Positions 1 to 363 of a stretch of DNA of 363 bases are shown here, in pieces. The DNA is from Escherichia coli (GTDB taxonomy: Bacteria; Pseudomonadota; Gammaproteobacteria; Enterobacterales; Enterobacteriaceae). The stretch is taken from assembly GCF_003334385.1 (NCBI RefSeq), contig NZ_QOWN01000190.1; one strand, given 5' to 3'. The notes beneath the pieces are model-generated. The model saw only the letters and a program-made list of their open reading frames with translations. It had not been told where the DNA came from and did no database searches. The position numbers were made by a program, and so were the translations under genes. Position 1 is the first letter of the stretch; the number at the start of each line of letters is the position of its first letter.

Positions 1-363
1 CTGCCTGATGGTGTGGAGACATACGGGGTGTGGGGACTCTCCCTGCCGTCACTGCGCCGTCGCCTGTTCCGCTGTGTGGCCATCCGGGAAAACACGGACG
101 GCACCTTTGCCATCACGGCGGTGCAGCACGTACCGGAAAAAGAAGCCATCGTGGATAACGGTGCCCGCTTTGAGCCGCAGTCAGGCTCCCTGAACAGCGT
201 CATCCCACCGGCAGTGCAGCACCTGACGGTGGAGGTGAGCGCAGCTGACAGCCAGTATCTGGCGCTGGCGAAATGGGACACGCCGAGGGTGGTGAAGGGC
301 GTGCGCTTCAGTCTGCGCCTGACCAGTGGAAGCGGTGAGAACAGCCGCCTGCTGACCACCGCC
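1..363 (+). CDS. J: Internal fragment (both ends outside the window) of a lambdoid-phage host specificity protein J homologue (tail tip attachment protein), central region upstream of the C-terminal receptor-binding part
   Basis: Seen in sequence: frame +1 is open across all 121 codons; third-position GC is about 77% against about 64% overall; CTG, GTG, CGC and GCC codons dominate, as in enterobacterial coding sequence. Recognition from memory: the translation aligns colinearly with the lambda J segment I recall as ...PDGVAEYSVWELKLPTLRQRLFRCVSIRENDDGTYAITAVQHVPEKEAIVDNGAHFDG...PPAVQHLTAEV...WDTPKVVKGVSFLLRLT..., including an identical block AITAVQHVPEKEAIVDNGA. Not verified by any search. 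Confidence 0.87.
   Translation, partial: MPDGVETYGVWGLSLPSLRRRLFRCVAIRENTDGTFAITAVQHVPEKEAIVDNGARFEPQSGSLNSVIPPAVQHLTVEVSAADSQYLALAKWDTPRVVKGVRFSLRLTSGSGENSRLLTTA
1..363. mobile_element. Part of a lambdoid phage or prophage tail-gene module; only context is implied, and no element boundary lies in the window
   Basis: Inference from the J-like CDS: J homologues occur in the late structural operon of lambdoid phages and prophages. No att site, integrase or element end is visible, so phage genome versus integrated prophage cannot be distinguished. Confidence 0.7.

Follow-up and report, generated by a model that had tools for sequence, protein, structure and literature searches.

A divergent patch in tail-tip gene J of a lambda-like phage is probably a weakly constrained inter-domain linker loop and a natural recombination junction

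The window, meaning here the whole 363-nucleotide stretch of Escherichia coli DNA that was analysed, is open over all 363 nt in frame +1; the other frames hold only open reading frames of at most 61 amino acids, and the minus strand has nothing longer than 26 amino acids. It is an internal piece of gene J, which encodes the trimeric tail-tip and host-specificity protein of a lambda-like siphophage, and it spans codons 549–669 in the numbering of Escherichia phage PhiR12_2. By megablast, the window is 100% identical in phages PhiR12_2 and PhiR12_5, where the gene is annotated as “tail tip host specificity protein J”, and 90–97% identical in more than 100 Stx-converting and other lambdoid phages. 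A match is present in 3,134 of 5,426 complete E. coli genomes, and the genomes that have one carry two copies at the median; two STEC strains carry it in prophages at 100% identity. A phmmer search against PDB sequences aligns window amino acids 1–120 with lambda gpJ 549–670 (E = 5.2e-48 for 9e7m_Ja and 8.3e-48 for 8iyk_J). Around the match in PhiR12_2 (PV340550.1) the gene order is M-L-K-I-J, the same as in lambda, Gifsy-2, and Stx2a_WGPS4. The Pfam architecture, read from the J open reading frame of this 100%-identical GenBank record and not from the window alone, comprises FNIII-A_GpJ, Phage-tail_3, Ig_J, Ig_J_second, and Phage_Tail_Tip (E between 4e-40 and 6e-18), with Ig_J (PF24421) assigned to J 609–712 (E = 2.4e-38). 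The features of the window are collected in Table 1.

Table 1. Features of the window, with positions in nucleotides of the window and residues or codons in J numbering.
Feature	Position	Strand	Basis
End of the beta-sandwich (OB-like) insertion in hub domain IV (HDIV), J 549–569	1..63	+	PMC10721106; lambda alignment; AlphaFold2 strand 558–562
Last two HDIV beta-strands, J 570–578 and 584–590 (predicted)	64..126	+	AlphaFold2 strands; beta25; conserved residues
Conserved block AITAVQHVPEKEAIVDNGA, J 585–603, end of HDIV and helix	109..165	+	19/19 identical to lambda; pN = 0.00, pS = 0.51
Short alpha-helix of the linker, J 594–600 (predicted)	136–156	+	AlphaFold2 model
Recombination junction seen in the J gene of a Stx2c phage (L003), codons 587–591	115..129	+	Fisher test; sliding identity
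Whole coil of the linker from HDIV to FNIII-1, J 601–620 (predicted)	157..216	+	DSSP on AlphaFold2 model
Divergent patch RFEPQSGSLNSVI, J 604–616, with anchors F605 and S/T611	166..204	+	Lambda identity; pN/pS; entropy; pLDDT
Least confident stretch of the model, J 609–614	181–198	+	pLDDT <50
Tract differing from Stx2a_WGPS4, codons 602–611	160..189	+	Nucleotide alignment; breakpoint codon 611 = nt 187–189
PPAVQHLT, J 617–624, linker end and start of FNIII-1 strand A	205..228	+	8/8 identical to lambda; pN = 0.00
N-terminal part of the FNIII-1 / Ig-like domain (Ig_J)	217..363	+	Pfam PF24421; AlphaFold2 strands

Outside the window, two of the related J genes appear interrupted. The annotated J of PhiR12_2 ends at 954 amino acids, and the remainder of the gene continues in another frame after a run of five G (L001:5191-5195, PV340550.1 ~43046-43050). 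This out-of-frame remainder resembles the C-termini of lambda and WGPS4 J, and the annotation calls a portion of it a separate “tail fiber protein” (L001:5395-5886). Adding a single G would restore a full-length J, and either a homopolymer sequencing error or a real frameshift could explain the interruption. Gifsy-2 J (L004:2369-5718) is likewise annotated as an 815-aa open reading frame plus a C-terminal pseudogene fragment. A literature search found no paper describing the PhiR12 phages.

The initial annotation, made from the letters of the window, had singled out a sharp switch from a segment identical to lambda J to one differing from it at most positions. Window amino acids 37–55 are indeed identical to lambda J 585–603 at 19 of 19 positions, and the lambda segment given for comparison, HFDGEQSGTVNGVT, proves to be the exact lambda sequence. 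Against it, window amino acids 56–68 differ in 8 of 14 aligned columns, with 6 columns identical, 7 substituted, and 1 occupied by a gap; several of the substitutions are conservative (R/H, E/D, S/T, L/V). The single gap accounts for the patch being one residue shorter than in lambda, as had been proposed. Its start at nucleotide 166 stands, but its end had been placed at 207, which takes in the first Pro codon of PPAVQHLT. Conservation had been said to resume at that motif, and this holds among close relatives: PPAVQHLT is identical to lambda at 8 of 8 residues and conserved among the J proteins of lambdoid phages of E. coli and Salmonella, but in a deep set of 92 representatives only P618 is well conserved.

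Within J, the divergence of the patch from lambda is low in identity but not extreme. Identity to lambda is 73.8% over J 1–820 and 67.5% in the window, and 70 of 809 14-column windows of J 1–820 (8.7%) are at least as divergent as the patch, with J 509–542, 649–672, and 761–772 matching or exceeding it. Runs of at least 12 identical residues occur twelve times in J 1–820. Both counts lend something to the idea that the switch arose by chance, as identity rises and falls along an alignment that is 68% identical, with nothing structural behind it. Against chance, the 603/604 boundary recurs both in the 92 representatives, which reach down to 31% identity, and in 71 close alleles, and it coincides with the transition from helix to coil in a structural model. 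Chance is thus a most improbable explanation of the switch.

The structural setting of the patch is provided by an AlphaFold2 model of J 1–830, computed as a monomer from a 40-sequence alignment and having a mean pLDDT of 85.8. The model predicts strands at 570–578 and 584–590, a helix at 594–600, coil at 601–620, and a strand at 621–630, with further strands at 558–562, 633–641, 650–657, and 664–671. Because the modelled strand 570–578 is the same as beta25 published for lambda gpJ (residues 570–578; PMC10721106), the two numberings agree. DSSP assigns no secondary structure to J 601–620 of the model. Inside the patch, J 609–614 is the sole internal segment of the model with a pLDDT below 50, which could partly come from the shallow 40-sequence alignment and from the prediction as a monomer. 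In lambda gpJ the inserted beta-sandwich comprises residues 483–569, and the connection from HDIV to FNIII-1 has been described as a “long loop plus short helix” (PMC10721106). The region modelled here has the same make-up: a short helix and then a long loop connect the final strand of HDIV with the opening strand of FNIII-1. On the model, the patch forms the loop portion of this linker from hub domain IV to FNIII-1. Of the surface loop that had been suspected, the loop is supported, in the form of a predicted 20-residue coil, and its placement is refined to an inter-domain linker and not a loop within a domain.

Published structures indicate that the linker moves in lambda. After binding of LamB, the lambda linker “disengages and repositions”, coming to lie at right angles to the tail axis (PMC11101478). 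The main text of PMC10721106, PMC11101478, and PMC12617516 gives no residue numbers for the linker, and PMC11945409 makes no mention of it. Foldseek matches the model to closed-state lambda gpJ (8k35_A, 8iyk_F, and 9e7m_Ja) with E = 0 over ~831–835 columns at an rmsd of ~27 Å, a value that, despite the full-length alignment, fits rigid domains joined by a movable linker. The open-state hub chains of 8xcg contain only 594–598 residues and match at TMt 0.80–0.81, the FNIII part of the open state being a separate PDB entry, 8xci.

Per-column conservation was examined at two depths. The close set consists of 85 loci (lambda, a Stx2c phage, Gifsy-2, Stx2a_WGPS4, and 80 IMG/VR contigs), from which a codon alignment of J 501–748 with 71 unique alleles was built. 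The deep set derives from a search of 1.84 billion cluster representatives that returned 2,713 homologues, and its alignment of 91 region-spanning homologues plus the query gives 92 representatives, at 31–94% identity to the query. Among the 71 close alleles, polymorphic residues cluster at 604 (R/S/H), at an indel after 606, and at 607, 608, and 611, with J 585–603 and 617–624 almost invariant. In the deep set conservation is high at H591 (0.98), P593 (0.90), and K595 (0.99) as well as at V599, D600, G602, and A603, and residues R572, E578, and G582 upstream are at least 90% conserved. Directly after the conserved block, conservation drops sharply at residue 604, where the column entropy of the 92 representatives jumps. 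The only loop residues clearly above the rest are F605 (0.91) and T611 (0.76). Conservation is next high at P618 (0.80), whose neighbouring columns reach 0.3–0.5. Among the representatives the distance from F605 to P618 is 11 to 15 residues, most often 14; in the window it is 13.

Lambda's additional Gly sits after D606 and occurs in only 21% of the 92 representatives, the other 79% lacking it; the shorter loop is the common state, and it is lambda, not the window, that has the unusual loop length. Lambda J G607 (in HFDGEQ; window equivalent 175–177) is accordingly a minority state, and the shorter form is found in the window and in Gifsy-2.

Two further sequence features were observed beside the loop. 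An H-x-P-x-K motif (window 127–141; J H591, P593, and K595) lies where the last HDIV strand meets the short linker helix. In homologues down to 31% identity H591 is kept in 98% and K595 in 99–100%, far above the surroundings, K595 being invariant in the second, 40-sequence full-length alignment; the motif may be a fixed pivot or anchor of the linker. Separately, an imperfect 21-nt direct repeat is present at window positions 116–136 and 209–229, with 17 of 21 nucleotides identical, the copies lying 93 nt apart and in frame. It encodes AVQHV and AVQHL, which flank the linker and are both found in lambda too. As good a match is reached in 15 of 1000 codon shuffles, and the second motif (AVQHL) is not conserved in the deep family.

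The nature of the contrast with lambda is best seen by separating silent from replacement differences. Nei–Gojobori proportions of synonymous (pS) and non-synonymous (pN) differences between the window and lambda were taken over five segments: pS and pN are 0.55 and 0.22 for J 549–584, 0.51 and 0.00 for J 585–603, 0.58 and 0.36 for the patch at J 604–616, 0.57 and 0.00 for J 617–624, and 0.51 and 0.28 for J 625–669. Over J 1–820, pS against lambda is 0.53. Since pS is flat and pN alone varies, the contrast with lambda reflects weak constraint at the level of the protein and not a foreign insert. The 71 close alleles give a pN/pS of 0.37 for the patch, 0.02 and 0.00 for its flanks, and 0.15 overall, with pS alike throughout (0.14–0.20).

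Variability at a spot like this might also arise from diversifying (positive) selection on the loop, through contact with a partner (gpI, gpL, or a neighbouring J subunit) or recognition of a host factor. Consistent with this, residues 604 (R/S/H/T/C) and 608 (Q/L/M) have changed again and again, one nucleotide at a time, even in alleles that share more than 90% identity, and amino-acid entropy in J 501–748 has three local peaks, of which the patch is one. Recombination, however, inflates apparent recurrent change; the pN/pS of the patch is well below 1; and the host range of J maps far away, to C-terminal residues 960–1132 (PMC6646904). Diversifying selection is, on balance, an unlikely cause of the variability, and weak constraint accounts for it better.

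Recombination has nonetheless left clear marks in and around the patch in close relatives of the window. At the DNA level, the J gene of a Stx2c phage shares 90–99% identity with PhiR12_2 as far as about codon 585 and 90–98% with lambda from there on; over 378 informative sites, the breakpoint from PhiR12_2 type to lambda type falls at codons 587–591 (table [[166,11],[16,185]], Fisher p = 1.4e-72). Stx2a_WGPS4 is of the Stx2c type through codon 611 and of the PhiR12_2 type after it (146 informative sites, table [[43,10],[10,83]], Fisher p = 6.8e-18). This switch of parent at codon 611 explains why the differences between the window and WGPS4 are concentrated in codons 602–611, where 12 nucleotides and a 3-nt indel differ, compared with only 4 differences in the preceding 36 codons and 1 in the following 13. 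Mosaic exchange, offered earlier as a possible cause of the switch, is thus supported by breakpoints in two close relatives, but it does not describe the contrast with lambda, in which silent divergence is equal in patch and flanks.

These breakpoints bear on the main competing explanation, namely that the patch is of foreign origin, a short fragment of another J allele brought in by recombination, so that exchange and not weak constraint makes the difference. The packing of the window–WGPS4 differences between nearly identical flanks agrees with such an origin, as do the two significant breakpoints, the presence of all four allele combinations at sites 604 and 611 in close homologues, and the documented intragenic recombination of J (PMC6646904). 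Against lambda, however, the pS of the patch is close to that of its flanks, so the patch is no older or more foreign than they are, and the same columns are variable in the 92 distant homologues, which a single exchange cannot explain. As the sole cause, a foreign segment is a serious contender but the less probable one. Exchange and weak constraint are compatible and can both hold: exchange produces the differences between close relatives, and constraint explains why variation arises at this spot in the first place.

J has several such junctions, of which the linker is one. A pairwise switch map of 45 full J 1–830 alleles has a cluster of junctions at 570–610, together with equal or larger clusters at 120, 140–160, 650, and 680–800. 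The linker was considered as a special recombination hotspot and rejected as such, because comparable or larger switch clusters lie in 20–200 and 490–800. A Chi site (GCTGGTGG) as the cause of the junctions was likewise dismissed, with only one 1-mismatch match found, no more than chance. Rfam gave no match in or around the patch at E up to 1, RNA folding is not unusual (z-score −0.57), and no inverted repeats were found. Along the gene as a whole, abrupt identity switches between J alleles are almost absent in the hub core (210–480) and frequent in the FNIII-A insertion (20–200) and from the HDIV beta-sandwich insertion onwards (490–800), a distribution that suggests inheritance of the hub core as one block with its partners.

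The linker has close counterparts in known tail tips. The lambda gpJ linker, seen in the closed (8IYK, 8K35, and 9E7M) and open (8XCG and 8XCI) states, belongs to the same family and lies at the same position (lambda 594–620). It shares with the window the two identical flanks, the predicted short helix with a long loop, and the neighbouring domains, and differs from it in the loop columns and loop length described above. The hdIV–FNIII linker of phage T5 pb3 is the same topological element, leading from hub domain IV to two FNIII domains. It is partly tucked in between adjacent subunits and holds the closed cone stable until receptor binding pulls it away “like a zip” (PMC10038345). Foldseek also matched the T5 tip structures 7zhj, 9ioz, and 7zqp, at only ~12–13% sequence identity. 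In T5 a single protein contains the hub domains, and pb3 includes the plug; in lambda-type phages these roles are divided among gpL, gpI, and gpJ (PMC10721106). With regard to mosaicism, Maddamsetti et al. 2018 (PMC6646904) likewise reported intragenic recombination in J, with peaks of variation that coincide with indels and parts of the gene that have different histories; their region is the receptor-binding end at residues 960–1132, and the junctions described here lie at 587–611, between the hub and FNIII.

Taken together, the patch is very probably the weakly constrained loop of the linker from HDIV to FNIII-1, and also a natural recombination junction, in a known J protein. The linker would tie the hub scaffold, HDIV, to the first of two FNIII domains. 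Below the tail tube, these two domains make up the closed cone. Its flanks, the last HDIV strand with the short helix on one side and the first FNIII-1 strand on the other, would pack into folded domains, and they evolve under strong purifying selection. The loop between them would need little beyond its length and the anchors F605, S/T611, and P618. With so few demands on its sequence, replacements and one-residue indels would accumulate in the loop while silent divergence stays equal to that of the flanks, and the sharp switch against lambda would follow. The linker also sits between two structural modules, next to a highly conserved block of DNA. Different J alleles have been joined here by homologous recombination in related prophages, and a short exchanged tract sets the window's own allele apart from those nearest to it.

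A mechanical role of the linker as a strap or “zip”, demonstrated for lambda and T5, can be inferred here by analogy with those structures. In the closed state the linker would run along the hub. After receptor binding it would disengage and re-route perpendicular to the tail axis, and its release would let the FNIII strings swing aside and the tube open. It is conceivable, though a long shot, that the sequence of the loop is not neutral and tunes the release of the zip, setting the trigger threshold for opening of the tail tip and ejection of DNA. If so, the recurrent substitutions at J 604 and 608, together with loops longer or shorter by one residue, would be adaptive adjustments, made each time recombination pairs a hub with an FNIII, fibre, or receptor-binding module of foreign origin.

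The J gene has been described before, including its structure and mosaic evolution, and the linker loop is an ordinary known feature of it; the earlier view of the patch as a normal part of these proteins and not a sign of a new system is upheld. What the natural recombinants add is that J 585–620, the conserved block together with the linker, is a workable splice point for chimeric J proteins, in which the hub of one phage is combined with the FNIII domains, fibre, and receptor-binding end taken from a second phage. Substitutions are tolerated in the loop, as are length changes of one or two residues, and the junction may find a use, of modest practical value, in host-range engineering of lambdoid phages and F-type tailocins.
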